Virus record (IMG/VR): IMGVR_UViG_2778261203_000003
Reading direction: 5' to 3' (one strand)
Length of the DNA stretch: 14,374 bases
From: a virus
Taxonomy: Duplodnaviria > Heunggongvirae > Uroviricota > Caudoviricetes
Under the pieces are notes generated by a model, which did no database searches, was not told the DNA's origin, and worked only from the letters and a program-made list of their open reading frames with translations. Made by a program: the position numbers and the translations under genes. The number at the start of each line of letters is the position of its first letter. Position 1 is the first letter of the stretch. Positions 1,298 through 14,374 of this stretch are shown here, one piece after another.

Positions 1298-1452
1298 TAG
1301 TTAGTGTGGCTTTTAGTCAAGTAAGATGACGTCTTGGTCTTGCTGATGCCTGGCGCTCAATCCAGCGATCAATTTCTTCCAGGTTGTAAAAGCATGGACT
1401 GTTAAATAGCCTATGCTAATGTCCGCTAAGAGCAAGAAGCGGAAGTTGGCAG

Positions 1453-1475
1453 TTTTGTGGACTGTCCCCACAAAA
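1453..1475. repeat. Perfect 8-bp inverted repeat with 7-bp spacer in the integrase upstream region
   Basis: TTTTGTGG (1453-1460), spacer ACTGTCC, CCACAAAA (1468-1475), about 160 to 180 bp upstream of the int start on the coding side. Could be a protein-binding site or a small hairpin. Confidence 0.3.
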
Positions 1476-1640
1476 GTGACTACAGAAATAGTTGCAATTC
1501 ATAATTGATCATGGGTTGTCAGTTAAACTCGTGGCGATTTAAATAGACTAATTGGGAGTGCGTCCATTACTTATATCTTGTAATGTTAACTATCAGAAAT
1601 GATACAAAGATAATATGTCTTTAAAGAAAAGGCTGATGGC

Positions 1641-1664
1641 GAAAAGTGGCCCGATGAGGGCCAC
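1641..1664 (-). terminator. Candidate intrinsic terminator downstream of flxA
   Basis: Inverted repeat GTGGCCC(1646-1652)/GGGCCAC(1658-1664) with 5-nt loop, followed on the minus strand by a short U run (plus-strand gaaaa 1641-1645), about 15 nt past the flxA stop. Confidence 0.35.
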
Positions 1665-1678
1665 AATACGGCTGTCAC

Positions 1679-2011
1679 TTAGACGTAAATATCAATGGTG
1701 CCAGCGGTATTTGTATCGTCTTTTTTCTCTTCTTTTTTATCAGGCTGAACTGTCGCGTCTTCATTCTTTTTCTCTGCCTGCTGCCTTAACAACTGCTCCA
1801 GTTGAGCCCAGAGGCTTTCAATTTGCTTCTGTACCAATGCAGCCATTTCTTTTTTCTGCTGTGTCGTCATCCCCTCTTCCGATGAGATTTTCCCAAGCTT
1901 TTCAGTCAGCACCTGAATTTGTCTTGTGATTTTGGCTATTTCTGATGTTCCTTCCGGGGCGGAGTTGTTTGAAATAACGGTTGAGGTATTTCCCTGAATT
2001 GTGACAGACAT
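1679..2011 (-). CDS. flxA: FlxA, a FliA-regulated protein of unknown function, 110 aa
   Basis: Translation MSVTIQGNTSTVISNNSAPEGTSEIAKITRQIQVLTEKLG... matches my recollection of E. coli FlxA. RBS AAGGAG about 6 nt upstream of the ATG. A sigma28-type promoter lies upstream (next feature). Confidence 0.85.
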   Translation of the reverse strand: MSVTIQGNTSTVISNNSAPEGTSEIAKITRQIQVLTEKLGKISSEEGMTTQQKKEMAALVQKQIESLWAQLEQLLRQQAEKKNEDATVQPDKKEEKKDDTNTAGTIDIYV

Positions 2012-2034
2012 AGATTTCTCCTTTTAAAAAAGCA

Positions 2035-2061
2035 CTATCGGCATGCACAAAAAAATCTTTA
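2035..2061 (-). promoter_or_regulatory. Sigma28 (FliA) promoter of flxA
   Basis: Minus strand reads TAAAGATT-N11-GCCGATAG (-35 at 2054-2061, -10 at 2035-2042) against the consensus TAAAGTTT-N11-GCCGATAA, 7/8 matches in each element with the correct 11-nt spacer, about 25 nt upstream of the flxA ATG. Confidence 0.6.
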
Positions 2062-2142
2062 ATCGTATTTCTTGTGTCATTAATTGTTTGATGTTCAGAT
2101 TGTTTTCCTCGCGGGCTGGCGCGCCTCAGAAAGTAAAGCTTG

Positions 2143-2171
2143 TTGACAGGGGTAAACGTTCGGCAATAATT
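2143..2171 (+). promoter_or_regulatory. Candidate sigma70 promoter, divergent from flxA and reading toward the ydfV/relB region
   Basis: Perfect -35 TTGACA (2143-2148), 16-nt spacer, AATAAT (2165-2170). A perfect 10-bp palindrome CCGCATGCGG (2176-2185) follows immediately. No convincing plus-strand gene lies directly downstream, so its function is unknown. Confidence 0.3.
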
Positions 2172-2213
2172 TTCTGCCGCATGCGGGTGTTGCATAAAAC
2201 GTGTTACGTTCCT

Positions 2214-2519
2214 TTATCGACAGGTCAGGTCACCGCTCACCCGCCGACGAGAAAGCAACACTGACATGCTAAAGCAAAAAATAGATGAATAAGTTGAGTT
2301 GTGCATATGTAGCCTGACCGTCACAAAGTATATGGTGTCTGTACCAGTAAGATGATGGCCGGACTCTTTAAAAACGAGCTGACCTGCACAATACAGGATG
2401 GACTTAGCAATGGCTGCTCCTGGCACAAAGCGGACAGTGATCACCGTTCTTACGACTACTTTCTGACTTCCTTCGTGACTTGCCCTAAGCATGTTGTAGT
2501 GCGATACTTGTAATGACAT
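2214..2519 (-). CDS. ydfV: YdfV-like hypothetical protein, 101 aa; coding status doubtful
   Basis: ORF track 101 aa. Length and position (between relB and flxA) match K-12 ydfV as I recall. Its ATG (2517-2519) lies inside the relO operator and no clear RBS was seen. Confidence 0.4.
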   Translation of the reverse strand: MSLQVSHYNMLRASHEGSQKVVVRTVITVRFVPGAAIAKSILYCAGQLVFKESGHHLTGTDTIYFVTVRLHMHNSTYSSIFCFSMSVLLSRRRVSGDLTCR

Positions 2520-2532
2520 TTGTAATTACAAG
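2480..2532 (+). promoter_or_regulatory. relBE promoter with relO operator
   Basis: -35 TTGCCC (2480-2485), 17-nt spacer, -10 GATACT (2503-2508). Operator CTTGTAATGACATTTGTAATTACAAG (2507-2532) holds two TTGTAAT direct repeats and a perfect 12-bp palindrome TTGTAATTACAA (2520-2531), as in the known relO. RBS AGAGGTG precedes the relB ATG. Confidence 0.6.
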
Positions 2533-2543
2533 AGGTGTAAGAC

Positions 2544-2783
2544 ATGGGTAGCATTAACCTGCGTATTGACGATGAACTTAAAGCGCGTTCTTACGCCGCG
2601 CTTGAAAAAATGGGTGTAACTCCTTCTGAAGCGCTTCGTCTCATGCTCGAGTATATCGCTGACAATGAACGCTTGCCGTTCAAACAGACACTCCTGAGTG
2701 ATGAAGATGCTGAACTTGTGGAGATAGTGAAAGAACGGCTTCGTAATCCTAAGCCAGTACGTGTGACGCTGGATGAACTCTGA
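2544..2783 (+). CDS. relB: RelB antitoxin, 79 aa
   Basis: Translation MGSINLRIDDELKARSYAALEKMGVTPSEALRLMLEYIADNERLPFKQTLLSDEDAELVEIVKERLRNPKPVRVTLDEL is near-identical to E. coli RelB as recalled. Its stop overlaps the relE start (TGATG). Confidence 0.95.
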   Translation: MGSINLRIDDELKARSYAALEKMGVTPSEALRLMLEYIADNERLPFKQTLLSDEDAELVEIVKERLRNPKPVRVTLDEL

Positions 2784-3070
2784 TGGCGTATTTTCTGGAT
2801 TTTGACGAGCGGGCACTAAAGGAATGGCGAAAGCTGGGCTCGACGGTACGTGAACAGTTGAAAAAGAAGCTGGTTGAAGTACTTGAGTCACCCCGGATTG
2901 AAGCAAACAAGCTCCGTGGTATGCCTGATTGTTACAAGATTAAGCTCCGGTCTTCAGGCTATCGCCTTGTATACCAGGTTATAGACGAGAAAGTTGTCGT
3001 TTTCGTGATTTCTGTTGGGAAAAGAGAACGCTCGGAAGTATATAGCGAGGCGGTCAAACGCATTCTCTGA
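2783..3070 (+). CDS. relE: RelE mRNA-interferase toxin, 95 aa
   Basis: Translation MAYFLDFDERALKEWRKLGSTVREQLKKKLVEVLESPRIEANKLRGMPDCYKIKLRSSGYRLVYQVIDEKVVVFVISVGKRERSEVYSEAVKRIL matches E. coli RelE. Translationally coupled to relB. Confidence 0.95.
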   Translation: MAYFLDFDERALKEWRKLGSTVREQLKKKLVEVLESPRIEANKLRGMPDCYKIKLRSSGYRLVYQVIDEKVVVFVISVGKRERSEVYSEAVKRIL

Positions 3071-3141
3071 ACCAAAGCATGACATCTCTGTTTCGCACCG
3101 AAGGTGACACTTCTGCTTTGCGTTGACAGGAGAAGCAGGCT

Positions 3142-3297
3142 ATGAAGCAGCAAAAGGCGATGTTAATCGCCCTGATCGTCATCTGTTTAACCGTCATAGT
3201 GACGGCACTGGTAACGAGGAAAGACCTCTGCGAGGTACGAATCCGAACCGGCCAGACGGAGGTCGCTGTCTTCACAGCTTACGAACCTGAGGAGTAA
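3142..3297 (+). CDS. hokD: HokD (RelF) membrane toxin, 51 aa; absent from the supplied ORF track because it is below the length cutoff
   Basis: Manual translation from ATG 3142: MKQQKAMLIALIVICLTVIVTALVTRKDLCEVRIRTGQTEVAVFTAYEPEE, stop TAA 3295-3297. RBS AGGAG at 3129-3133. Third gene of the relBEF operon. Confidence 0.9.
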   Translation: MKQQKAMLIALIVICLTVIVTALVTRKDLCEVRIRTGQTEVAVFTAYEPEE

Positions 3298-3365
3298 GAG
3301 ACCCGGCGGGGGAGAAATCCCTCGCCACCTCTGATGTGGCAGGCATCCTCAACGCACCCGCACTT

Positions 3366-3397
3366 AACCCGCTTCGGCGGGTTTTTGTTTTTATTTT
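3366..3397 (+). terminator. Rho-independent terminator of the relB-relE-hokD operon
   Basis: Stem AACCCGC (3366-3372), loop TTCG, stem GCGGGTT (3377-3383), then a T-rich run TTTTTGTTTTTATTTT. Confidence 0.6.
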
Positions 3398-3513
3398 CAA
3401 CGCGTTTGAAGTTCTGGACGGTGCCGGAATAGAATCAAAAATACTTAAGTAGCGCGCAGGGATAAGAGGGATGGTCCCTTAAAGGGGAGAGCTAATTATC
3501 CGGAAGGATTCTG

Positions 3514-3765
3514 ATGATGAACATCGAAGAACTGCGTAAAATTTTTTGTGAAGATGGCCTCTATGCTGTGTGCGTTGAAAATGGAAATCTTGTTAGTCAT
3601 TACCGCATTATGTGTTTGCGAAAGAATGGGGCTGCGTTAATTAATTTTGTGGATGCTCGGGTCACGGACGGATTTATCTTGCGCGAAGGTGAGTTTGTCA
3701 CTTCATTACAGGCATTGAAAGAGATCGGAATAAAAGCTGGCTTTTCTGCTTTTTCAGGAGAATAA
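3514..3765 (+). CDS. rem: Rem, small prophage protein of unknown function, 83 aa
   Basis: ORF track 83 aa, MMNIEELRKIFCEDGLYAVC... RBS GGAAGGA upstream. Position between hokD and ydfU as in Qin. Confidence 0.8.
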   Translation: MMNIEELRKIFCEDGLYAVCVENGNLVSHYRIMCLRKNGAALINFVDARVTDGFILREGEFVTSLQALKEIGIKAGFSAFSGE

Positions 3766-3831
3766 ACTCATCTACAATCTTGCGCGGGGCTGAACTCCCG
3801 CTGAGTAACACCGTGCCACCGGAGAAAACCG

Positions 3832-4110
3832 ATGGCACGCAACGCAAAATATTACAATTCTGATAATTCGCCCGTTCTTGCCTGCACGCACGGGCGGTAT
3901 TCTCACGCATTCAAGTCTGAATGGTTCCAGCACCCTCCATGCACTGCAGAACAGGCCGAATGGCTGATTCATTCTTACCGCAGGCGCGGGTTCGAGGTTA
4001 AGAAAGCTCTCAGTCTCGACTATCGGCACTGGATAATCTCTGTCAGGCTGCCTTATTCCGAACGCCCACCACGTGCGTCCCGCACTTTCCTGCAACGGAT
4101 CTGGAGGTAA
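3832..4110 (+). CDS. Hypothetical basic protein, 92 aa, translationally coupled to ydfU
   Basis: ATG 3832 preceded by GGAG (3821-3824) at 7-nt spacing. Stop TAA 4108-4110 sits inside the ydfU RBS, one nt before the ydfU GTG. Fills the rem-ydfU intergenic gap. I do not recognise the product. A GC-rich antisense ORF also covers the region. Confidence 0.4.
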   Translation: MARNAKYYNSDNSPVLACTHGRYSHAFKSEWFQHPPCTAEQAEWLIHSYRRRGFEVKKALSLDYRHWIISVRLPYSERPPRASRTFLQRIWR

Positions 4111-4111
4111 C

Positions 4112-5161
4112 GTGCGGGTATTACTTAGACCTGTTCTGGTGCCTGAGCTTGGGCTGGTGGTCCTTAAGCCGGGCCGTGAATCCATACAGATATTTCATAA
4201 TCCTCGAGTGCTGGTGGAACCGGAACCAAAAAGCATGCGTAATCTGCCATCCGGAGTCGTTCCTGCCGTTCGCCAGCCGCTGGCGGAAGACAAAACATTG
4301 CTGCCGTTTTTTAGTAACGAACGGGTGATTCGTGCTGCTGGCGGCGTTGGCGCATTGTCCGACTGGCTATTACGTCATGTTACATCCTGCCAGTGGCCTA
4401 ATGGCGATTACCATCACACTGAAACAGTCATTCACCGTTATGGTACCGGCGCAATGGTGTTGTGCTGGCACTGCGACAACCAACTGCGTGACCAGACATC
4501 GGAATCACTGGAGCTGCTTGCTCAACAAAATCTGACAGCATGGGTGATTGACGTCATCCGTCACGCAATAAGCGGTACGCAGGAGCGGGAATTATCTTTG
4601 GCTGAATTATCCTGGTGGGCGGTCTGCAATCAGGTGGTGGATGCACTACCTGAGGCTGTATCGCGTCGTTCGCTGGGATTACCAGCGGAAAAAATCTGCT
4701 CGGTGTACCGCGAAAGCGACATCGTACCGGGAGAGCAGACCGCCACCAGCATATTGAAACAACGCACAAAAAATCTTGCACCGTTGCCTTACGCCCACCA
4801 GCAACAAAAATCACCACAGGAAAAGACGGTGGTAAGCATCACCGTTGATCCAGAGTCTCCGGAATCTTTCATGAAGCTGCCTAAACGTCGCCGCTGGGTT
4901 AAGGAGAAATACACACGTTGGGTTAAGACACAGCCGTGTGCTTGCTGCGGTATGCCAGCCGACGATCCGCATCATCTGATTGGTCACGGGCAGGGCGGAA
5001 TGGGAACAAAAGCACATGATCTCTTTGTGTTGCCTTTGTGCAGAAAGCATCACAACGAGCTGCATACGGATACAGTGGCATTTGAAGATAAGTATGGCTC
5101 CCAACTGGAGCTGATATTTCGTTTTATCGATCGCGCGCTGGCAATTGGCGTACTGGCGTAA
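4112..5161 (+). CDS. ydfU: YdfU (DUF968-family) protein with a C-terminal HNH-like Cys/His motif, 349 aa from GTG
   Basis: ORF track frame 4073..5161. Preferred start is GTG 4112, which has GGAGG at 4103-4107; the GTG at 4073 has no RBS. C-terminus carries CACCG...PHHLIGH...CRKHHNELH, resembling an HNH nuclease zinc-binding signature. Length matches the 349 aa I recall for K-12 YdfU. Confidence 0.8.
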   Translation: MRVLLRPVLVPELGLVVLKPGRESIQIFHNPRVLVEPEPKSMRNLPSGVVPAVRQPLAEDKTLLPFFSNERVIRAAGGVGALSDWLLRHVTSCQWPNGDYHHTETVIHRYGTGAMVLCWHCDNQLRDQTSESLELLAQQNLTAWVIDVIRHAISGTQERELSLAELSWWAVCNQVVDALPEAVSRRSLGLPAEKICSVYRESDIVPGEQTATSILKQRTKNLAPLPYAHQQQKSPQEKTVVSITVDPESPESFMKLPKRRRWVKEKYTRWVKTQPCACCGMPADDPHHLIGHGQGGMGTKAHDLFVLPLCRKHHNELHTDTVAFEDKYGSQLELIFRFIDRALAIGVLA

Positions 5162-5174
5162 GTGGAGAACGAGC

Positions 5175-5927
5175 ATGAACCTTGAAGCCTTACCAAAATA
5201 TTACTCCCCAAAATCTCCAAAATTGAGCGATGACGCTCCAGCGACAGGCACCGGTTGTTTAACAATTACGGATGTAATGGCAGCGCAGGGGATGGTGCAG
5301 TCGAAAGCACCACTTGGGTTGGCCTTATTTCTGGCAAAAGTTGGTGTTCAGGACCCTCAGTTTGCGATTGAAGGCCTGCTAAATTACGCGATGGCACTGG
5401 ATAACCCGACATTGAACAAATTGAGTGAAGAAATCCGGTTACAGATTATTCCTTACCTCGTGAGTTTTGCCTTTGCTGATTACTCCAGGTCTGCGGCAAG
5501 TAAGGCTCGCTGTGAGCATTGTTCAGGTACGGGATTTTATAATGTATTGCGCGAAGTGGTGAAACACTACAGACGCGGGGAATCTGTAATCAAGGAAGAA
5601 TGGGTGAAGGAACTATGTCAGCATTGCCATGGTAAGGGCGAAGCCAGCACAGCGTGCAGAGGGTGTAAGGGTAAAGGGATTGTTCTGGATGAAAAAAGAA
5701 CCCGGTTTCATGGCGTACCGGTATATAAGATTTGTGGGCGTTGTAATGGAAACCGGTTTAGTCGTTTACCGACCACGCTGGCACGACGTCATGTTCAGAA
5801 GCTGGTACCAGACCTGACCGATTATCAGTGGTATAAGGGGTATGCGGACGTCATTGGTAAACTGGTAACAAAGTGCTGGCAGGAAGAAGCATACGCGGAA
5901 GCGCAATTGAGGAAGGTGACGAGATAA
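5175..5927 (+). CDS. quuQ: Q-type late-gene antiterminator, 250 aa
   Basis: Start ATG 5175 (MNLEALPKYY...) with RBS GGAGAA. Several Cys pairs (CEHCSG, CQHCHGKG, CRGCKGKG, CGRCNG) typical of Q-family zinc-binding antiterminators. Followed by a promoter plus terminator pair. Confidence 0.85.
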   Translation: MNLEALPKYYSPKSPKLSDDAPATGTGCLTITDVMAAQGMVQSKAPLGLALFLAKVGVQDPQFAIEGLLNYAMALDNPTLNKLSEEIRLQIIPYLVSFAFADYSRSAASKARCEHCSGTGFYNVLREVVKHYRRGESVIKEEWVKELCQHCHGKGEASTACRGCKGKGIVLDEKRTRFHGVPVYKICGRCNGNRFSRLPTTLARRHVQKLVPDLTDYQWYKGYADVIGKLVTKCWQEEAYAEAQLRKVTR

Positions 5928-5958
5928 ATGATTTTTGCTGAAGATGGCGACATGATGT

Positions 5959-5987
5959 TTGCATTTTTCAAAAAATATGGATAAAAT
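5959..5987 (+). promoter_or_regulatory. Candidate late promoter (pR'-like) downstream of quuQ
   Basis: TTGCAT (5959-5964), 17-nt spacer, TAAAAT (5982-5987), about 30 nt after the quuQ stop, with a strong terminator roughly 45 nt downstream. This is the arrangement lambdoid phages use for Q antitermination. Exact element assignment is unverified. Confidence 0.4.
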
Positions 5988-6033
5988 TTTTTCAACGATG
6001 GGCTTTGTATACCCGACGTTAAGAAAAAGTAGA

Positions 6034-6060
6034 AAACCCGCTGATGAGCGGGTTTTGTGC
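6034..6060 (+). terminator. Rho-independent terminator (tR'-like) after the candidate late promoter
   Basis: Stem CCCGCT (6037-6042), loop GATG, stem AGCGGG (6047-6052), then TTTTGTGCTTT. An A run upstream could make it bidirectional. Confidence 0.55.
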
Positions 6061-6348
6061 TTTAAATGGGGCAATGGTAATGTTGAATCTCATCCCGGGA
6101 CTCATGTCTGTTAACTTATTATTTAGCTGGTGACTTGGTTATTTGCCTGATGTTTAAAATGTTTTCTTCCAGTACAATGTCCCTAAACACAATGAGTCTG
6201 CTTATTATATTATTAGCAGAGCTATTACGGCCAAAGTACAGCATAAGCTTTTAAAGCCAATCAACCAGTCATCAAGACAGACGGGGTTATTCATAAAAAC
6301 TCTCCATGTGTGATCCGATGGGGCCTGAAATTAAAGCTTTAATATAGC

Positions 6349-6561
6349 TCATGAAAGGTAAACATTGGCAGCTGAAGGGCCACGCAGACCATTTATCCGG
6401 CAAAATTCCACGCGTAATCCGGTGGTAATTTCTTCTGCATCGCGGAGATTGAGCGCTGAAACATGAAGCTGGACATCGATACGACCATCGGATGGGGTGA
6501 TAAGACCCTTGCCGCTTTTGCCGTCAAAGGTTTTGACAATTCCTGTCATTTTACGGGACAA
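6349..6561 (-). CDS. cspF: Cold-shock protein family paralog CspF, 70 aa
   Basis: Translation [70 protein letters not shown] has the CspA-family fold signature and CspF-like divergence from the RNA-binding motifs. Confidence 0.9.
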
Positions 6562-6832
6562 AAAAATTCCTTAATACTGATAACTTGGCGCACTATACAC
6601 ACGTTCCTGAAGAAAGCTATAGTTTTTTGATGGGGTTGAAGATGGCTGGATGTCTAAAATAAACATTGCTTCATATGTTCAACTATGCGTTAATGATTGC
6701 GTCGGTTTGAAGAACAGACGATATACGAAGTAGTTTACTAAAGCAGTTCTCATTTCAGGTGTTATTCACTTATTCCTTCTTTGAGTCTCTCCAATTAAGT
6801 ACGAAGTCGTTTCTGTTATGCAAACCATTTAT

Positions 6833-6845
6833 GCCGAAAGGCTCA
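6833..6845 (+). promoter_or_regulatory. Csp 5'-UTR 'upstream box' element ahead of the cspB RBS
   Basis: GCCGAAAGGCTCA at 6833-6845, close to the GCCGAAAGGCACA element described in the cspA-family 5' UTRs, 16 nt upstream of the cspB ATG. Confidence 0.4.
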
Positions 6846-6861
6846 AGTTAAGGAATGTAGA

Positions 6862-7077
6862 ATGTCAAATAAAATGACTGGTTTAGTAAAATGGTTTAAC
6901 GCTGATAAAGGTTTCGGCTTTATTTCTCCTGTTGATGGTAGTAAAGATGTGTTTGTGCATTTTTCTGCGATTCAGAATGATAATTATCGAACCTTATTTG
7001 AAGGTCAAAAGGTTACCTTCTCTATAGAGAGTGGTGCTAAAGGTCCTGCAGCAGCAAATGTCATCATTACTGATTAA
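6862..7077 (+). CDS. cspB: Cold-shock protein CspB, 71 aa
   Basis: Translation [71 protein letters not shown] carries the RNP1 (KGFGFI) and RNP2 (VFVHF) motifs. Confidence 0.95.
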
Positions 7078-7359
7078 AATTCATCGCTCGTCTGTATACG
7101 ATAACGAAGAAGGCTGATGCCTGAGTAGAGATACGGACAGAGTAGTGAATATTGGATCTCTTTAATAAAAAGTAAGGAGGTCCAATACATGAAACAATGG
7201 CTAGCATATTTGGCAAAATCTTAATCAGGAAAAGTATGCTAACCATTGTGGTGAAGTGCAGGTTTGCTGCATGAATAGTTTTACAGCAGAAGCTAACTGC
7301 TGGCATGGCAAAACAAAGTGCGTAAGTGGATGACTCCCACAAAAAGCACCACAATCTCA

Positions 7360-7382
7360 AACCCGCTCAGGCGGGTTTTTTA
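7360..7382 (+). terminator. Rho-independent terminator
   Basis: Stem AACCCGC (7360-7366), loop TCAG, stem GCGGGTT (7371-7377), then TTTTTTATT. Lies about 280 nt downstream of cspB. Confidence 0.55.
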
Positions 7383-7440
7383 TTATCTGCTTTAAATATA
7401 TTATTAAAATATAAAAAATACTTGTTACTAATAAAATCAA

Positions 7441-7611
7441 TCAGGCTACAGCTTTAAGATTTGTCTGGAATACTTTGTTGCAATGAGGGCAGATCAAAAG
7501 GGCACCTTTTTGTACTCTTGAAAAACTGTGTTCTGACTCTTGGGTGCAGTTTGGGCAGGAACATTTAACGAGATAATTACGGCGTGATTTTGAGTTTTTA
7601 CGTTCTGACAT
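7441..7611 (-). CDS. Small zinc-ribbon protein, 56 aa (the ORF track extends it to 73 aa from an upstream ATG at 7662); possibly YnfU-like
   Basis: Two C-x2-C pairs (CSCPNC ... CPHC) about 20 residues apart. The internal ATG at 7611 has an AGGA RBS at about -9; the upstream ATG at 7662 has none. The assignment to the K-12 small protein YnfU is from uncertain memory. Confidence 0.5.
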   Translation of the reverse strand: MSERKNSKSRRNYLVKCSCPNCTQESEHSFSRVQKGALLICPHCNKVFQTNLKAVA

Positions 7612-7830
7612 AGGCTTTTCCTGTATAAATGGCCGTATACAGTACACTAAATATGAAAACATTTCTCGTATTATTATTTTATATATGACTTTCTTTCAAA
7701 ATAATTACCCACATTTTTAATGTGTATGTTTTTTTAGCGCCGTTGAGAACAACGTGTGCTGTCAAAACTACCCCGTAGACTCCGATCTTTTCAAACATAT
7801 TGCACCATCCGTGTACATCGGGGTGAGGAT

Positions 7831-8046
7831 ATGAAATCAATGGATAAGTTAACAACAGGTGTTGCCTATGGCACATCGGCGGGTAATGCTGGTTTCTGGG
7901 CATTGCAGTTACTCGATAAAGTAACTCCGTCACAGTGGGCTGCAATCGGTGTGCTGGGTAGCCTGGTTTTTGGCCTGCTGACGTATCTGACAAATCTTTA
8001 TTTCAAGATTAAAGAAGACAGGCGTAAGGCTGCGAGAGGAGAGTAA
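7831..8046 (+). CDS. essQ: Phage-21-type pinholin (S21-like), 71 aa, with dual-start motif
   Basis: [71 protein letters not shown] is near-identical to phage 21 S21 as recalled. Met1-Lys-Ser-Met4 dual start (antiholin/holin), two transmembrane domains, RBS GTGAGGA. Confidence 0.85.
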
Positions 8047-8050
8047 TCCA

Positions 8051-8358
8051 ATGACTCAAGACTATGAACTGGTTGTGAAAGGAGTCCGTAATTTTGAGAA
8101 TAAAGTTACGGTAACTGTAGCCTTACAGGACAAAGAACGCTTTGACGGTGAAATTTTTGACCTGGATGTCGCCATGGACCGTGTTGAAGGAGCTGCGCTG
8201 GAGTTTTATGAGGCAGCAGCCAGAAGGAGCGTCCGGCAAGTCTTCCTGGAAGTAGCAGAAAAATTGTCAGAAAAAGTTGAGTCTTATCTGCAGCATCAGT
8301 ACTCCTTTAAGATTGAAAATCCTGCCAATAAGCACGAGCGTCCTCATCATAAATATCT

Positions 8359-8362
<4 letters not shown>
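8051..8362 (+). CDS. ydfR: YdfR (DUF1327-family) protein, 103 aa, between holin and endolysin
   Basis: ORF track 103 aa. Its stop overlaps the endolysin start (ATGA). Same position as ydfR in K-12 Qin (recollection). Confidence 0.8.
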
Positions 8363-9386
<1,024 letters not shown>

Positions 9387-9748
9387 GGTAATATTAAATC
9401 GGAACATTTACATCGCGGAATGTAAAATTTAAATAAAAAGGACTCTTCCATGAGCCAAAATTCCTGAAATCTTAAGGGTAAGATAAAAGGTCTTAATCAG
9501 AATGACACGTTTTATTAATAAATAAAGCTATTCTTTCATTGCTGTGTTTTTCTTTACAAAAGTAATCCTTGCTATGGGTGGTTAATCATGCGTTAATGGT
9601 GTTCTGGTTTGTTACAAATTTATCTGAAGCAGTCATTGTTATAATTTTATTATTTGTACCTCTTGAGATTTCCTTGTTGGTTTTTCTCTCTGATATTTTT
9701 TTTCGGACCATTCTGCCCAAGGGCTAATTTCTTCAAAAGGTAATAATT

Positions 9749-9961
9749 ATGTCTAACAAAATGACTGGTTTAGTGAAATGGTTTAACCCTGAAAAAGGTT
9801 TTGGTTTCATCACGCCGAAAGATGGCAGCAAAGATGTGTTTGTCCATTTCTCAGCAATTCAGAGCAACGATTTCAAAACATTAACTGAGAATCAGGAAGT
9901 TGAATTTGGTATTGAGAACGGACCTAAAGGTCCTGCCGCTGTTCATGTAGTGGCGCTTTGA
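9749..9961 (+). CDS. cspI: Cold-shock protein CspI, 70 aa
   Basis: Translation [70 protein letters not shown] with RNP1/RNP2 motifs. Long AT-rich 5' leader typical of csp genes. Confidence 0.9.
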
Positions 9962-10049
9962 GGTAGACAATATTACAAACCATATTCACTTTAGATGCCC
10001 GTGTTGTCATGGTTCCCAGTATAGAACATCATCTTTTGATGTTTCTGAC

Positions 10050-10160
10050 ATGAATCCTTTCGGGGCAAAATGTATCTTTTGTAAATCAATGATGATTACA
10101 TTTGATAATATTTCACAATACTTAAATGCCAGCCGTCTGTCGTTGGATTTAAAAAAGTGA
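10050..10160 (+). CDS. Small ORF, 36 aa from the first ATG; the frame is open from 9951 and upstream encodes a C-P-C-C zinc-ribbon half; possibly ynfN-like
   Basis: In-frame translation ...FRCPCCHGSQYRTSSFDVSDMNPFGAKCIFCKSMMITFDNISQYLNASRLSLDLKK*. There is no ATG, GTG or TTG in frame between 9951 and 10050, so the true start is unresolved. A strong terminator follows directly. Confidence 0.35.
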   Translation: MNPFGAKCIFCKSMMITFDNISQYLNASRLSLDLKK

Positions 10161-10165
10161 AAATG

Positions 10166-10188
10166 AAGGCTCCTTCGGGAGCTTTTTT
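10166..10188 (+). terminator. Rho-independent terminator after the cspI/ynfN-like unit
   Basis: Stem AAGGCTCC (10166-10173), loop TTCG, stem GGGAGCTT (10178-10185, one G-U pair), U run 10183-10188. Confidence 0.6.
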
Positions 10189-10232
10189 GCTTGGTGTCTA
10201 TTCGATGGATACTCACATACTACGGTAACATC

Positions 10233-10463
10233 ATGAAAAAAATCATAGTTTTTTTTAACTCTGAACCAGCAGTGGTAGTGCCAGCGATGACTGGAGTTAA
10301 CACCATCATGCGTGAATATCCAAATGGCGAAAAAACACACCTTACTGTAATGGCCGCAGGGTTTCCATCTCTGACCGGAGATCATAAAGTCATTTATGTA
10401 GCCGCGGATCGACATGTTACTTCAGAAGAAATTCTGGAAGCAGCAATAAGGCTCTTGAGTTGA
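10233..10463 (+). CDS. Hypothetical protein, 76 aa from ATG 10233 (the ORF track begins at a TTG at 10191)
   Basis: Protein-like composition (MKKIIVFFNSEPAVVVPAMTGVNTIMREYPNGEKTHL...). Lies between the terminator at 10166-10188 and gnsB. RBS is weak and no clear promoter was found, so confidence is limited. Confidence 0.35.
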   Translation: MKKIIVFFNSEPAVVVPAMTGVNTIMREYPNGEKTHLTVMAAGFPSLTGDHKVIYVAADRHVTSEEILEAAIRLLS

Positions 10464-10631
10464 TTTGATGCTATTGCATTGATAATTCAGGAAAATTCTC
10501 TTTGTCTGTTTGTGTAAAATTTAGACTATCGTATGTTGATTATTGCGATGTTTCATCTTATCTTTTACACGTTTGCACCATATAATCGACTTACTGTGTA
10601 ACTGGAAAGTCATAACAGACTAAAAGAGGAA

Positions 10632-10808
10632 ATGATGAATATTGAAAACTTAAAAACAAAAGCAGAAGCAGATATTTCTGAATATATAACAAAAAAAATT
10701 ATTGAACTTAAGAAAAAGACCGGGAAAGAAGTTACCAGTATTCAGTTTACCGCACGGGAAAAAATGACGGGTCTTGAAAGCTATGATGTCAAGATTAATT
10801 TAATCTGA
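10632..10808 (+). CDS. gnsB: GnsB (GnsA/GnsB family) protein, 57-58 aa
   Basis: Manual translation MMNIENLKTKAEADISEYITKKIIELKKKTGKEVTSIQFTAREKMTGLESYDVKINLI* with tandem ATGs at 10632 and 10635. RBS AAGAGGA at 10623-10629. Not in the ORF track (below cutoff). Confidence 0.8.
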   Translation: MMNIENLKTKAEADISEYITKKIIELKKKTGKEVTSIQFTAREKMTGLESYDVKINLI

Positions 10809-10835
10809 TGTATTCAATAATAAAATTTATCCATA

Positions 10836-10866
10836 AACCTCGTTTTTACGGGGTTTTGTTATATTT
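10836..10866 (+). terminator. Candidate rho-independent terminator after gnsB
   Basis: Stem AACCTCG (10836-10842), loop TTTTTA, stem CGGGGTT (10849-10855, one G-U pair), then TTTGTTATATTT. Confidence 0.5.
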
Positions 10867-10922
10867 GAATGGTTCCGAATATCTAAATCACAATTGTTGA
10901 TGGTTTTTATTAAACCAATGCA

Positions 10923-10951
10923 GTCCGGCTCAGGAGTGAGAGAAGCCGGAC
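10923..10951 (-). terminator. Hairpin immediately downstream of ydfO; possible terminator
   Basis: Perfect 8-bp inverted repeat GTCCGGCT (10923-10930) / AGCCGGAC (10944-10951) with a 13-nt loop, 9 nt past the ydfO stop. The trailing U run on the minus strand is imperfect. Confidence 0.3.
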
Positions 10952-10959
10952 GTTATGGT

Positions 10960-11370
10960 TTAGCGTGGTAAGATCTGTGTAGTTTTCTGGATGCTTTCAG
11001 TAAATAGTAATGAATTATCAAAGGTATAGTAATATCTTTTTTGTTCGTGGATATTTGTAACCCACCGAAAAACTCCTGCTTTAGCAAGGTTTCTTCTGTA
11101 TTCCTGAAATGTGATCTCTCTGGATTTCAGCTTATTAGAGGTCGTTTCTATAAGATGCCTATCCTTTGAAAATTTGACAGACACAATGTTTTTTAGGCCC
11201 TTTAATAACACTGTATTATCATTTTTTAATACAATATGAACATTCTCTGTGGCTAAATAGTAAATGTAATGTGAGACATTGTGACGTTTTAGCTCAGAAT
11301 AAAACCATTGATAGTTTAAATCGTTTCGAACTTTATCAAATATTTGTTTAAAAATGACTACCTGATCCAT
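10960..11370 (-). CDS. ydfO: YdfO (DUF1398-family) protein, 136 aa (the ORF track extends to an upstream ATG at 11385)
   Basis: [104 protein letters not shown]... matches YdfO as recalled. The ATG at 11370 has a GGAAGG RBS; the ATG at 11385 has none. Confidence 0.8.
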
Positions 11371-11427
11371 AGATAAACCTTCCATGTGATATGAGGGGGC
11401 GTAGTCTGCACGATTATCTAAATTGCT

Positions 11428-11661
11428 TCAATCTGGTCTGACCTGTTTTCTGAGCAATTCAGTAATGTCACTCTTTTCTTTGTTTGCTTCAGAAGAAACT
11501 CTTTTTTCTGAGCACAGTCTCCGGCGGCAGGCTTCAATGACCCAGGCTGAGAAATTCCCGGACCCTTTTTGCTCAAGAGCGATGTTAATTTGTTCAATCA
11601 TTTGGTTAGGAAAGCGGATGTTGCGGGTTGTTGTTCTGCGGGTTCTGTTCTTCGTTGACAT
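11428..11661 (-). CDS. ynfO: YnfO (YlcI/YnfO, DUF3950-family) small protein, 77 aa, with a ribbon-helix-helix-like core
   Basis: The segment NIRFPNQMIEQINIALEQKGSGNFSAWVIEACRRRL fits a beta-strand / helix / G-x-S-x-N turn / helix pattern typical of RHH DNA-binding domains. Lies directly upstream of ydfO on the same strand. Confidence 0.75.
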   Translation of the reverse strand: MSTKNRTRRTTTRNIRFPNQMIEQINIALEQKGSGNFSAWVIEACRRRLCSEKRVSSEANKEKSDITELLRKQVRPD

Positions 11662-11776
11662 GAGGTTGCCCCGTATTCAGTGTCGCTGATTTGTATTGTC
11701 TGAAGTTGTTTTTACGTTAAGTTGATGCATGCGTGATGCACTGGATGCACGTAAATCCCGTCTCTCAGGAGGGCGA

Positions 11777-12172
11777 ATGACCAAAGAGACTCAATCAACA
11801 ACTGTTTCAGCCACTGCTTCGCAGGCTGACGTTACTGACGTGGTGCCAGCGACGGAGGGCGAAAACGCCAGCGCGGCGCAGCCGGACGTGAACGCGCAGA
11901 TCACCGCAGCGGTTGCGGCAGAAAACAGCCGCATTATGGGGATCCTCAACTGTGAGGAGGCTCACGGACGCGAAGAACAGGCCCGCGTGCTGGCAGAAAC
12001 CCCCGGTATGACCGTGGAAACGGCCCGCCGCATTCTGGCCGCAGCACCACAGAGTGCACAGGCGCGCAGTGACACTGCGCTGGATCGTCTGATGCAGGGG
12101 GCACCGGCACCGCTGGCTGCAGGTAACCCGGCATCTGATGCCGTTAACGATTTGCTGAACACACCAGTGTAA
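11777..12172 (+). CDS. Nu3: Lambda-like capsid scaffolding protein Nu3, 131 aa (the ORF track begins at 11729 with 16 extra in-frame codons)
   Basis: ATG 11777 preceded by GGAGG (11768-11772). Ala/Glu/Gln-rich, acidic composition typical of scaffolds. Sits directly upstream of lambda D in the lambda order C/Nu3-D-E. Upstream in-frame sequence is open only from 11726, so no gene C body is present. Confidence 0.65.
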   Translation: MTKETQSTTVSATASQADVTDVVPATEGENASAAQPDVNAQITAAVAAENSRIMGILNCEEAHGREEQARVLAETPGMTVETARRILAAAPQSAQARSDTALDRLMQGAPAPLAAGNPASDAVNDLLNTPV

Positions 12173-12181
12173 GGGATGTTT

Positions 12182-12514
12182 ATGACGAGCAAAGAAACCT
12201 TTACCCATTACCAGCCGCTGGGCAACAGTGACCCGGCTCATACCGCAACCGCGCCCGGCGGATTGAGTGCGAAAGCGCCTGCAATGACCCCGCTGATGCT
12301 GGACACCTCCACCCGTAAGCTGGTTGCGTGGGATGGCACCACCGACGGTGCTGCCGTTGGCATTCTTGCAGTTGCTGCTGACCAGACCAGCACCACACTG
12401 ACGTTCTACAAGTCCGGCACGTTCCGTTATGAGGATGTGCTCTGGCCGGAGGCTGCCAGCGACGAGACGAAAAAACGGACCGCGTTTGCCGGAACGGCAA
12501 TCAGCATCGTTTAA
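12182..12514 (+). CDS. D: Lambda head decoration protein D (gpD), 110 aa
   Basis: [110 protein letters not shown] is near-identical to phage lambda gpD as recalled. RBS AAGGGA. Confidence 0.9.
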
Positions 12515-12531
12515 CTTTACCCTTCATCACT

Positions 12532-12556
12532 AAAGGCCGCCTGTGCGGCTTTTTTT
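12532..12556 (+). terminator. Stable hairpin plus U run between D and E; terminator-like or a translational control structure
   Basis: AAAGGCCGC (12532-12540), loop CTGT, GCGGCTTT (12545-12552), followed by TTTTTT, 14 nt upstream of the E start. Confidence 0.35.
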
Positions 12557-12569
12557 ACGGGATTTTTTT

Positions 12570-13424
12570 ATGTCGATGTACACAACCGCCCAGCTGCTGG
12601 CGGCAAATGAGCAGAAATTTAAGTTTGATCCGCTGTTTCTGCGTCTCTTTTTCCGTGAGAGCTATCCCTTCACCACGGAGAAAGTCTATCTCTCACAAAT
12701 TCCGGGACTGGTAAACATGGCGCTGTACGTTTCGCCGATTGTTTCCGGTGAGGTTATCCGTTCCCGTGGCGGCTCCACCTCTGAATTTACGCCGGGATAT
12801 GTCAAGCCGAAGCATGAAGTGAATCCGCAGATGACCCTGCGTCGCCTGCCGGATGAAGATCCGCAGAATCTGGCGGACCCGGCTTACCGCCGCCGTCGCA
12901 TCATCATGCAGAACATGCGTGACGAAGAGCTGGCCATTGCTCAGGTCGAAGAGATGCAGGCAGTTTCTGCCGTGCTTAAGGGCAAATACACCATGACCGG
13001 TGAAGCCTTCGATCCGGTTGAGGTGGATATGGGCCGCAGTGAGGAGAATAACATCACGCAGTCCGGCGGCACGGAGTGGAGCAAGCGTGACAAGTCCACG
13101 TATGACCCGACCGACGATATCGAAGCCTACGCGCTGAACGCCAGCGGTGTGGTGAATATCATCGTGTTCGATCCGAAAGGCTGGGCGCTGTTCCGTTCCT
13201 TCAAAGCCGTCAGGGAGAAGCTGGATACCCGTCGTGGCTCTCATTCCGAGCTGGAGACAGCGGTGAAAGACCTGGGTAAAGCGGTGTCCTATAAGGGGAT
13301 GTATGGCGATGTGGCCATCGTCGTGTATTCCGGACAGTACGTGGAAAACGGCGTCAAAAAGAACTTCCTGCCGGACAACACGATGGTGCTGGGTAACACT
13401 CATGCACGCGGTCTGCGCACCTAA
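12570..13424 (+). pseudogene. E: Lambda major capsid protein E (gpE), truncated at its 3' end: 284 codons retained of about 341
   Basis: MSMYTTAQLLAANEQKFKFDPLFLRLFFRESYPFTTEKVYLSQIPGLVNMALYVSPIVSGEV... matches lambda gpE through ...[11 protein letters not shown] and is then cut by TAA at 13422-13424 where lambda continues YGCIQDADAQ. Unrelated (tail fiber) sequence follows. Confidence 0.85.
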
Positions 13425-13426
13425 CC

Positions 13427-14374
13427 GCGCTGACAGACAATACGCAGGGGGCAACAGGTCTTGAGTTATACGAGGTGTATAACAACGGATATCCAACAGC
13501 GTATGGAAATATCATTCACCTGAAAGGGATGACAGCCGTTGGCGAAGGTGAGTTACTCATCGGCTGGAGTGGTACAAGCGGTGCTCATGCTCCGGCATTT
13601 ATTCGTTCACGACGGGATACGACCGACGCAAACTGGTCGCCGTGGGCGCAGCTTTACACCTCGGCTCATCCTCCTGCAGAGTTTTATCCAGTCGGTGCAC
13701 CAATCCCGTGGCCATCAGATACCGTTCCGTCTGGCTATGCCCTGATGCAGGGGCAGACTTTTGACAAATCTGCATACCCGAAACTTGCAGCGGCTTATCC
13801 GTCAGGCGTGATCCCTGATATGCGTGGCTGGACGATTAAGGGCAAACCTGCCAGTGGTCGGGCCGTATTGTCTCAGGAACAGGACGGCATTAAATCGCAT
13901 ACCCACAGCGCCAGCGCATCCAGTACGGATTTGGGGACGAAAACCACATCGTCGTTTGATTACGGCACTAAATCCACGAATAACACTGGTGCGCATACCC
14001 ATAGTTTAAGTGGCAGCACGAATGCAGCTGGTAATCACAGCCATAGAGATGGCCGTCGATTTAACCCCAGTGTTTTTAAAGATACTTATCAATATGGTTA
14101 TACAAGCTCAGGTCAAAATACCTGGGGTGTACAAGGCTCAGTAGGTATGTCTACGGGGTGGTTAGCTAATACCAGTACAGATGGTAATCATAGCCACTCA
14201 CTGTCCGGCACAGCAGCATCTGCAGGTGCACACGCGCATACTGTCGGTATTGGTGCTCATACGCACTCCGTTGCGATTGGTTCACATGGACACACCATCA
14301 CCGTTAACGCTGCTGGTAACGCGGAAAACACCGTCAAAAACATCGCATTTAACTATATTGTGAGGCTTGCATAA
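13427..14374 (+). pseudogene. stf: 3' fragment of a lambda-type side tail fiber gene (Stf C-terminal region); the 5' boundary is approximate
   Basis: In-frame translation ...[53 protein letters not shown]... ending ...[11 protein letters not shown] matches the C-terminal part of lambda Stf as recalled. Repeated G-x-H-x-H motifs near the C-terminus. The frame is open only from 13397 and there is no N-terminal part; the window ends at its stop codon. Confidence 0.8.

Follow-up and report, generated by a model that had tools for sequence, protein, structure and literature searches.

What removed the late genes of a cryptic prophage, and did the deletions end where chance put them? The question is raised by the virus record IMGVR_UViG_2778261203_000003 of IMG/VR, a stretch of 14,374 nucleotides (nt) that is called the window here. 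Judged from its sequence, the window comes from a cryptic prophage of E. coli, lambdoid and of the Qin type, at the rspB/ydfJ locus, and its right part is what remains of the late (morphogenesis) operon. The decay of prophages is commonly seen as random deletion, with selection sorting the outcomes. The two scars of this operon differ in kind: the left one is private, and the right one lies at a recurrent breakpoint in the side tail fibre gene stf.

The far more complete prophage of HCP30S3_I2 (locus L003), integrated at the same rspB/ydfJ locus, carries after ynfO the series cos, nohA, A, W, B, C/nu3, D, E, FI, FII, Z, U, V, G, T, H, M, L, K, I, J. The right end of such a prophage is seen in ATCC 8739 (locus L004), with J, lom, a stf of 1007 amino acids (aa), tfaQ, pinQ, ydfK, ynfT and ydfJ'. 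Compared with the complete Qin-type prophages, the window lacks 20 kb or more, namely cos and the packaging, head, tail and fibre-shaft genes. Its collinearity with HCP30S3_I2 breaks at position 30092 of L003, resumes at 35516 and ends again at 37210. An earlier reading of the window from its letters alone (the sequence-only reading) had proposed at least two deletion junctions, and these breaks bear it out. It had placed them at about 11700-11776 and 13422-13474; the locations hold, but the junctions are points, 11728-11729 and 13422-13423, and not ranges. The alignment to lambda and K-12 Qin that it proposed puts the breakpoints at lambda 48371|5293 and 6988 and reveals no intact E gene or head-tail gene set. 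The microhomology to be sought at each junction is 2 nt long in both, CA and TA. The earlier observation is thus partly confirmed, and its interpretation is supported.

At the right scar (junction 2, 13422-13423) codon 284 of E is joined to stf with the 2-nt overlap TA. The E parent reads …GGTCTGCGCACC[TA]TGGCTGC…, the intact stf parent …AAAAGGTCGGG[TA]ACCGCGCTGACAG…, and the window …GGTCTGCGCACC[TA]ACCGCGCTGACAG…. Deletion 2 therefore begins at E codon 284 and ends where 316 codons of stf remain. With L003 and L004 as the proxy ancestor, approximately 15.8 kb are estimated to be gone: the 3' part of E, all genes from FI to J, lom, and the 5' 2.1 kb of stf. The sequence-only reading had the side tail fibre gene begin within about 50 bp of the end of E. 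It was right that this is the C-terminal part of stf, but there is no 50-bp gap: both the homology and the reading frame of stf begin at 13422-13424, where they share 2 nt with the end of E and are two frames off from it. The stf fragment, stf', is left without its own start codon at the junction, and the GTG at 13475 is merely the first start picked by an open reading frame (ORF) finder.

The stf side of junction 2 reads …GGGT|A(A/G)CCGCGCTGACAG…, and this breakpoint recurs to the exact base. The sequence to the right of the break, both variants considered, is A(A/G)CCGCGCTGACAGACAATACG. The position is the boundary between the shaft part of stf and the exchangeable receptor-binding cassette formed by the 3' part of stf (stf-C) and tfa. 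In the Qin prophage of K-12 MG1655 (NC_000913.3 1632277-1652745), which occupies the same locus between rspB and ydfJ, the stf' fragment begins at the same base as in the window. The K-12 sequence across its junction is …GAGTGAATAT|AACCGCGCTGACAG…, with nohA on the left and stfQ' on the right. K-12 Qin retains cos and nohA and has nohA codon ~176 joined to stf', whereas the window lacks both and has E codon 284 in that place. The fusion of nohA, the Nu1 homologue, to stfQ' is a hallmark of K-12 Qin that is absent from the window. The sequence-only reading was therefore correct that the window differs from K-12 Qin, with nohA beside stfQ' in the latter, but the difference is confined to the left partner, and the stf base is identical. 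The same stf base follows another large terminase in NT1F34 and a tape-measure fragment in E308. The window, K-12, NT1F34, E308 and the intact stf of ATCC 8739 all diverge at this one base.

IMG/VR and metagenome contigs were scanned with the 31 nt to the right of the break, and the AGCC variant of the site served for a further scan. The stf breakpoint is shared by at least 19 distinct left partners. They include nohA (2 positions), A (2), the portal gene B, E (2, one of them at codon ~70) and Z, as well as the end of a V-like gene, the end of lom, another large terminase (TerL), another portal, a ClpP-type protease-scaffold gene, a tape-measure gene, L and I. Four partner types were found on the AGCC variant. 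All partners are late genes that lie upstream of stf in native orientation, so that each fusion is a simple deletion. All known left endpoints lie to the right of cos. The last base before the break (-1) is T in 18 of the 19 partners. For the 8 partners with a known parent, the parental sequence has T at -1 in 7 and A at +1 in 7. The overlap is therefore 1-2 nt (T or TA), with a single exception in locus L018, whose partner shares 8 nt (TAACCGCG) with the stf site. Among complete genomes, 685 are intact at the site and about 370 have K-12-type or nearby A'-type junctions. A scan of species-representative genomes yielded two E. coli records only and added nothing.

In a control scan of all fetched loci, distinct non-native left-flank types were counted at 35 anchor positions from -600 to +550. 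There were 14-18 flank types (34-39 loci) at the stf site versus 0-1 everywhere else. The other ends of homology to the ATCC 8739 fibre gene (+230, +257 and -593) have a single flank type each, as expected of mosaic joints inherited by descent. Hence the right endpoint of deletion 2 is a recurrent, base-precise hot spot and not a random position, and late genes became joined to this base in many independent events.

The opposite arrangement, a fixed left half with a variable right partner, was seen once in about 135 loci. In this locus, L162, the 3' part of tfa (QQEPNGWKTVTTQFYIQEF…; about 9140-9431) continues the reading frame of the stf shaft (…SKGRV), and the joint is at the same base. L162 also has nohA fused to a J-like sequence. 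The parent of its reciprocal junction was not found among the fetched tfa types. Two other prophages with the hot-spot junction have a second, unrelated upstream deletion, nohA'|lom' in L123 (1-690) and lysis region|3' end of E in L018 (1-1730), a two-scar layout as in the window.

The left scar is of another kind. The homologue of the right end of lambda (lambda 48141-48371; window 11499-11729, plus strand; 97.4% by blastn) ends approximately 130 bp short of cosN, and thus cos is deleted. At junction 1 (11728-11729) lambda position 48371 is joined to 5293 with the 2-nt overlap CA. The left parent is …AAGTTGATGCA|GATCAATTAATACG… (K-12, L003 and lambda 48371), and its native continuation, AGATCAATTAATACG..., is present in K-12, L003 and more than 130 other loci. 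The right parent is …ACCGTCA|TGCGTGATGCACTGG… (lambda 5293), and the window reads …AAGTTGATG[CA]TGCGTGATG…. Relative to L003, deletion 1 took approximately 5,423 bp, comprising cosQ/N/B, nohA, A, W, B and the first 292 codons of C (its 5' two-thirds). Among approximately 146 loci with the left half and approximately 131 with the right half, the sole non-native partner is that of the window and its sister contigs. As both halves are otherwise always native, deletion 1, reaching from ~130 bp before cosN to nu3 codon 55, is a private one-off event of ordinary illegitimate recombination. Junction 1 thereby doubles as a negative control for the recurrence at junction 2. It had been considered that strain LR-46 shares junction 1; this was rejected, LR-46 retaining more of C.

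The Qin late operon was gutted by two separate deletions, the second of which probably ended at the stf hot spot through site-specific break-and-join. The ancestor would have had a complete lambda-like head-tail module at rspB/ydfJ before the two deletions. We infer that break-and-join occurs at the T^A step of the stf site. The DNA would be broken or nicked there, and the downstream 5' end would be kept to the nucleotide, like an enzyme-linked or otherwise protected end. This end would then be joined to an upstream 3' end sharing T or TA, and the intervening DNA would be lost. Any single named candidate for the enzyme is unlikely. Fixed-endpoint deletions are made by site-specific enzymes in several systems, such as the Int-promoted b deletions of lambda at attP, deletions adjacent to insertion sequences (IS), and deletions at the nick sites of the M13 and pC194 origins. 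By analogy, the stf deletions may be likened to these, since one end is fixed to the base, and the other varies in position but stays on one side and in one orientation and shows hardly any homology or none. However, the stf site has no att core, IS end, origin or recognisable recombinase site.

A further suggestion, offered tentatively, is that lambdoid stf genes in general carry an unrecognised site of site-specific breakage or strand transfer (…GGGT^A(A/G)CCGCG…), on which a host or phage enzyme acts at the boundary of shaft and cassette. The normal product of this enzyme may be the exchange of receptor-binding cassettes, as hinted by L162 and by in-frame joints at the same base, and one-sided deletion of the late operon would be a frequent by-product.

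Taken alone, the window shows the ordinary scarring of a cryptic prophage and adds a new structural variant of Qin, a matter of local interest only. The recurrence gives it a wider meaning, since at least 19 independent deletions in the late operon, as found in public data, and the well-known nohA-stfQ junction of K-12 can be traced to one phosphodiester bond in stf. If the suggestion is true, the stf site would be a main route to the cryptic state for E. coli lambdoid prophages, K-12 Qin included. Breaks made by a defined enzyme would provide a repeatable mechanism of prophage domestication and would explain why orphan stf-C/tfa/pin modules survive so frequently; possibly they would also be the mechanism by which receptor-binding cassettes of tail fibres are swapped. 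The literature yielded no paper on a deletion hot spot in stf or Qin, and the hot spot is apparently undescribed before.

Several points weigh against site-specific break-and-join. No enzyme or recognition motif was matched to the stf site, and no second or inverted copy of it was found in L002-L004 or in any fetched locus (~490). The patterns used to retrieve the loci were anchored on the site or close to it, and the control scan covers these same loci, which are a sample and not a census. The independence of the events follows from their differing left endpoints and not from phylogeny. Ordinary microhomology (8 nt) can account for the L018 case alone. Selection for an intact cassette could have weeded out endpoints on the right of the site, but it offers no explanation for their absence from the 2.1 kb to its left.

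One alternative, which we rate as unlikely, is a strong cleavage site of a host topoisomerase (gyrase or a type IA enzyme), with deletions produced by topoisomerase-mediated illegitimate recombination in which the covalently held 5' end would fix the right endpoint. Topoisomerases attach to 5' ends and would keep ...AACC exact, and such host enzymes are present in every strain. For gyrase, the register AGGTCG|GGTA|ACCGCG, with the bottom-strand cut at TA|ACC, falls in the 98th percentile over the central 36 bp; the scoring used only the Topo-seq consensus (PMC6379681 supplement) and not a weight matrix, and over 124 bp the best register reaches the 86th percentile. However, the 98th percentile is unremarkable, with hundreds of equal sites in a region on the 10-kb scale. 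In the subunit-exchange model of gyrase, half of the products should keep the GGTA of stf, and none of the 19 clearly does. Among the sites listed in the part of the gyrase tables that was covered there is no stfQ or nohA entry, but K-12 itself lacks the intact site. E. coli TopoI cleaves at TA dinucleotides and strictly needs C at -4 (PMC9352719). The stf site has the TA, but its C lies at -5 on either strand and so misses the register by one position, and the TopoI motif was rejected.

Another possibility is that both junctions are random microhomology-mediated deletions, the shared stf endpoint being due to selection, for example to keep the cassette, or to sampling. The 2-nt overlaps at both junctions are typical of illegitimate recombination, the stf-C + tfa module is conserved and widely shared, and Stf fragments can benefit the host, as is the case for StfE2 (PMC12529663). 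However, selection cannot fix an endpoint to the base, and most fusions are out of frame or have no start codon. Moreover, the 2.1 kb of upstream stf would be neutral ground for selection, yet it has 0-1 foreign flanks per position against 14-18 at the site. Random deletion is an improbable source of the shared endpoint.

It is equally improbable, in our estimate, that the fixed end is the physical end of imported DNA nicked, for example, by a relaxase, Rep or a terminase-like enzyme and then transferred or packaged, with recombination by homology on the far side and an illegitimate join at the leading end (homology-facilitated illegitimate recombination). Over its left 10.3 kb the window matches K-12 at 99.95% identity, but stf' reaches only 97.3% and includes a foreign block, so that the two sides have different histories. 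The pattern of a fixed end with variable partners is that of the deletions at the nick sites of the M13 and pC194 origins reportedly described by Michel and Ehrlich in 1986. By eye, the reverse complement of the site (GGTTACC-CGACCT) is loosely similar to cosN (GGTTACG...CGACCT), but no nick-site or cos motif could be matched objectively, and the resemblance implies a nick 3-4 nt from the observed break. Furthermore, mosaicism of stf is expected anyway from homologous exchange (PMC3945230). As a separate observation, the reverse strand of the intact stf site in L004 (3986-4030; GCGGTTACC-CGACCTTTTG) shares GGTTAC and CGACCT with lambda cosN (CAGGTTACG-GGGCGG-CGACCTCG), possibly by coincidence.

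The stf breakpoint could also be a crossover site of PinQ, the neighbouring invertase of the Din family, with Pin recombining it with upstream quasi-sites, as Cin does with quasi-cix. Like the known Din crossover sites (gix, cix, pix and hix), of which gix of Mu and cix of P1 are similarly placed, it lies inside a fibre gene at the boundary of the constant and variable parts, upstream of tfa and pin (~316 codons and one tfa before pin). The 2-nt overlap matches the 2-bp crossover of serine recombinases. To the left of the site, GTCTTCAAAAGG resembles by eye what we take to be the left half-site of hix/pix, but this would place the core 4-6 nt to the left of the observed break. The Din consensus, an inverted pair of 26 bp (TTNTCNNAAACC-NN-GGTTTNNGANAA), has no match within 5 mismatches at or near the stf site, although the same search recovered the genuine pix sites of e14 (TTCTCCCAAACC-AA/TT-GGTTT..., with an AA/TT core) as a positive control. 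PinQ is reported to act on these e14 pix sites (PMC12529663). The stf site differs from Din sites in being off the consensus, in having TA and not AA/TT as the core, and in having no inverted partner, none being present in about 490 loci. Several loci with the junction have no pin gene after tfa. A Pin/Din site was thus rejected as a simple explanation: the consensus is not matched, the control was recovered, and the substrate of PinQ is pix. With all this, the PinQ account seems quite improbable. A recombinase always linked to the cassette was rejected too, some contexts having no recombinase (pin) gene after tfa.

It is highly improbable that all strains inherited a single ancient junction whose left partner was later swapped by homologous recombination, for although lambdoid prophages recombine often (PMC3945230) and K-12-type junctions are widespread, homologous exchange cannot put E', Z', B' or a tape-measure fragment in the place of nohA' at the same base, because these genes lie within the segment that any earlier deletion removed, and the junctions occur in different prophage backgrounds and on both site variants, AACC and AGCC.

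Other elements were considered and rejected. The att core of Qin, with the end repeat GAAATCCATAA, is unlike the stf site. An IS or transposon end has neither an inverted nor a direct second copy here, and to its right come stf', tfaQ and pinQ or unrelated genes; the site is not known to match an IS end sequence. A DNA hairpin would be a tiny CGG-GTAA-CCG stem-loop with the break at its apex; its folding z-scores, from -0.6 to -1.3, are not significant, and it is not required, because the AGCC variant, which weakens the stem, is also used. Nor is the BstEII-type palindrome GGTNACC (GGTAACC) required, the AGCC variant having its 4 partner types.

Between the scars lies the head-gene remnant, consisting of a fragment of C/Nu3 (Nu3'), D and a truncated E (E'). 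The window from 11728/9 to 13423 is 99.2% identical to lambda 5293-6988. The DNA of these genes is collinear with, and 98.6-99.9% identical to, that of the complete Qin-type or lambda-like prophages of HCP30S3_I2 and ATCC 8739. Nu3' (11729-12172, plus strand) corresponds to residues 55-201 of lambda Nu3 (147 aa, 146 identical) and has no Pfam match. Its frame opens at a native internal Met at 11729, as lambda nu3 starts at 5132 and the homology only at 5293. A full-length Nu3 (201 aa) nested in the C protease (439 aa) is not present, the 54 N-terminal residues of Nu3 and the entire S49 protease domain of C being absent from the window. D, the head decoration gene (12182-12514, plus strand), is full length (110 aa), with 108/110 residues identical to lambda D and a Pfam HDPD match (3.8e-22). 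Therefore, of the claim that Nu3 and D are intact, only the part about D stands. E' (12570-13424, plus strand) comprises residues 1-284 of the 341 of the major capsid protein, 281 of the 284 being identical to lambda E. It matches Pfam Phage_cap_E at profile positions 1-273 of 329 and is thus short of the full 341 aa. It ends in ...ARGLRT at the TAA stop 13422-13424, which is built across junction 2; the sequence-only reading had described this end, lambda-like up to GLRT, correctly. The intergenic hairpin and T run between D and E (aaaggccgcctgtgcggcttttttt, 12515-12569) are kept as in lambda.

No cos, terminase, portal or tail genes are found in the window between ynfO and the remnant, in agreement with the earlier statement that terminase and portal genes are missing upstream of Nu3'. 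Since cos, the terminase subunits, the portal, the protease, a complete scaffold and capsid (including the C-terminus of E) and all tail genes are missing, the element should be unable to form virions or be packaged into them, as had been proposed. By the same gene content, Nu3' and E' are likely pseudogene fragments, and D would be intact but orphaned, with no capsid to decorate.

The stf' cassette (13424-14374, plus strand), recognised by homology and Pfam, comprises the 3' 316 codons and the stop of the side tail fibre gene. It contains Pfam Collar (1.3e-12) and Phage_fiber domains and is 97-98% identical to K-12 stfQ and ATCC 8739 stf. Both Collar and the fibre repeats of an stf-C + tfa cassette are thus in the window, and tfaQ, the Caudo_TAP assembly gene, comes next in sister contigs. 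K-12 Qin, like these contigs, has stf' followed by tfaQ-pinQ-ydfK-ynfT. The module that persists in the window lineage is stf-C, tfaQ and pinQ, and the same module persists in K-12. The foreign block of approximately 160 bp (14014-14177) lies in the His-rich repeat region and has no DNA match to K-12 stfQ or ATCC 8739 stf; with flanks 93-98% identical to these genes, it is a mosaic patch. Approximately 50 fetched loci lose homology to the right arm of Qin within ~20 bp of the tfaQ stop (about 5471-5486 in L004), and thus stf-C + tfa (~1.48 kb) acts as a discrete cassette with a sharp right edge too.

In none of 5,426 complete RefSeq E. coli genomes is either junction present as continuous sequence. 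At least 24 contigs (55 index blocks), drawn from NCBI drafts, Logan assemblies and one metagenome, carry the exact E' of 284 aa as a called gene, and in every one the gene order is ynfO, Nu3', D, E', stf', tfaQ, pinQ, ydfK, ynfT, ydfJ. The architecture of the window is real but uncommon. In one sister contig (L275, 8646-9603) rem nearly abuts a 147-aa ORF and Nu3', and the genes from ydfU to ynfO are missing.

The left part of the window is the Qin backbone. Positions 1400-11729 are 99.95% identical to K-12 MG1655 Qin over 10,330 bp, from flxA through ynfO, with the gene set flxA-relBE-hokD-rem-ydfU-ydfT-cspF/B-essQ-rrrQ-rzpQ-cspI-gnsB-ydfO-ynfO. The last intact Qin gene before the scar is ynfO (11428-11661, minus strand), an ORF of 77 aa of the YlcI/YnfO family annotated at the matching position in K-12. 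Positions 1-1404 are 100% identical to the integrase end adjoining rspB in L003, and sister contigs run from rspB-int to pinQ-ydfK-ynfT-ydfJ, which is the Qin integration between rspB and ydfJ with the integrase at the rspB end. Unlike K-12 Qin, the window keeps Nu3'-D-E' and lacks the dicA-dicB-ydfE segment. A third junction lies at 1400-1404, where positions 1-1404, containing the integrase gene and the 3' part of xis, adjoin a sequence that in K-12 is 4.5 kb away, near ydfW. Lost at this junction are the 5' part of xis, exo/ydfE, dicB, dicF, ydfABC, dicA and dicC, and the two matches that meet there overlap by 5 nt.

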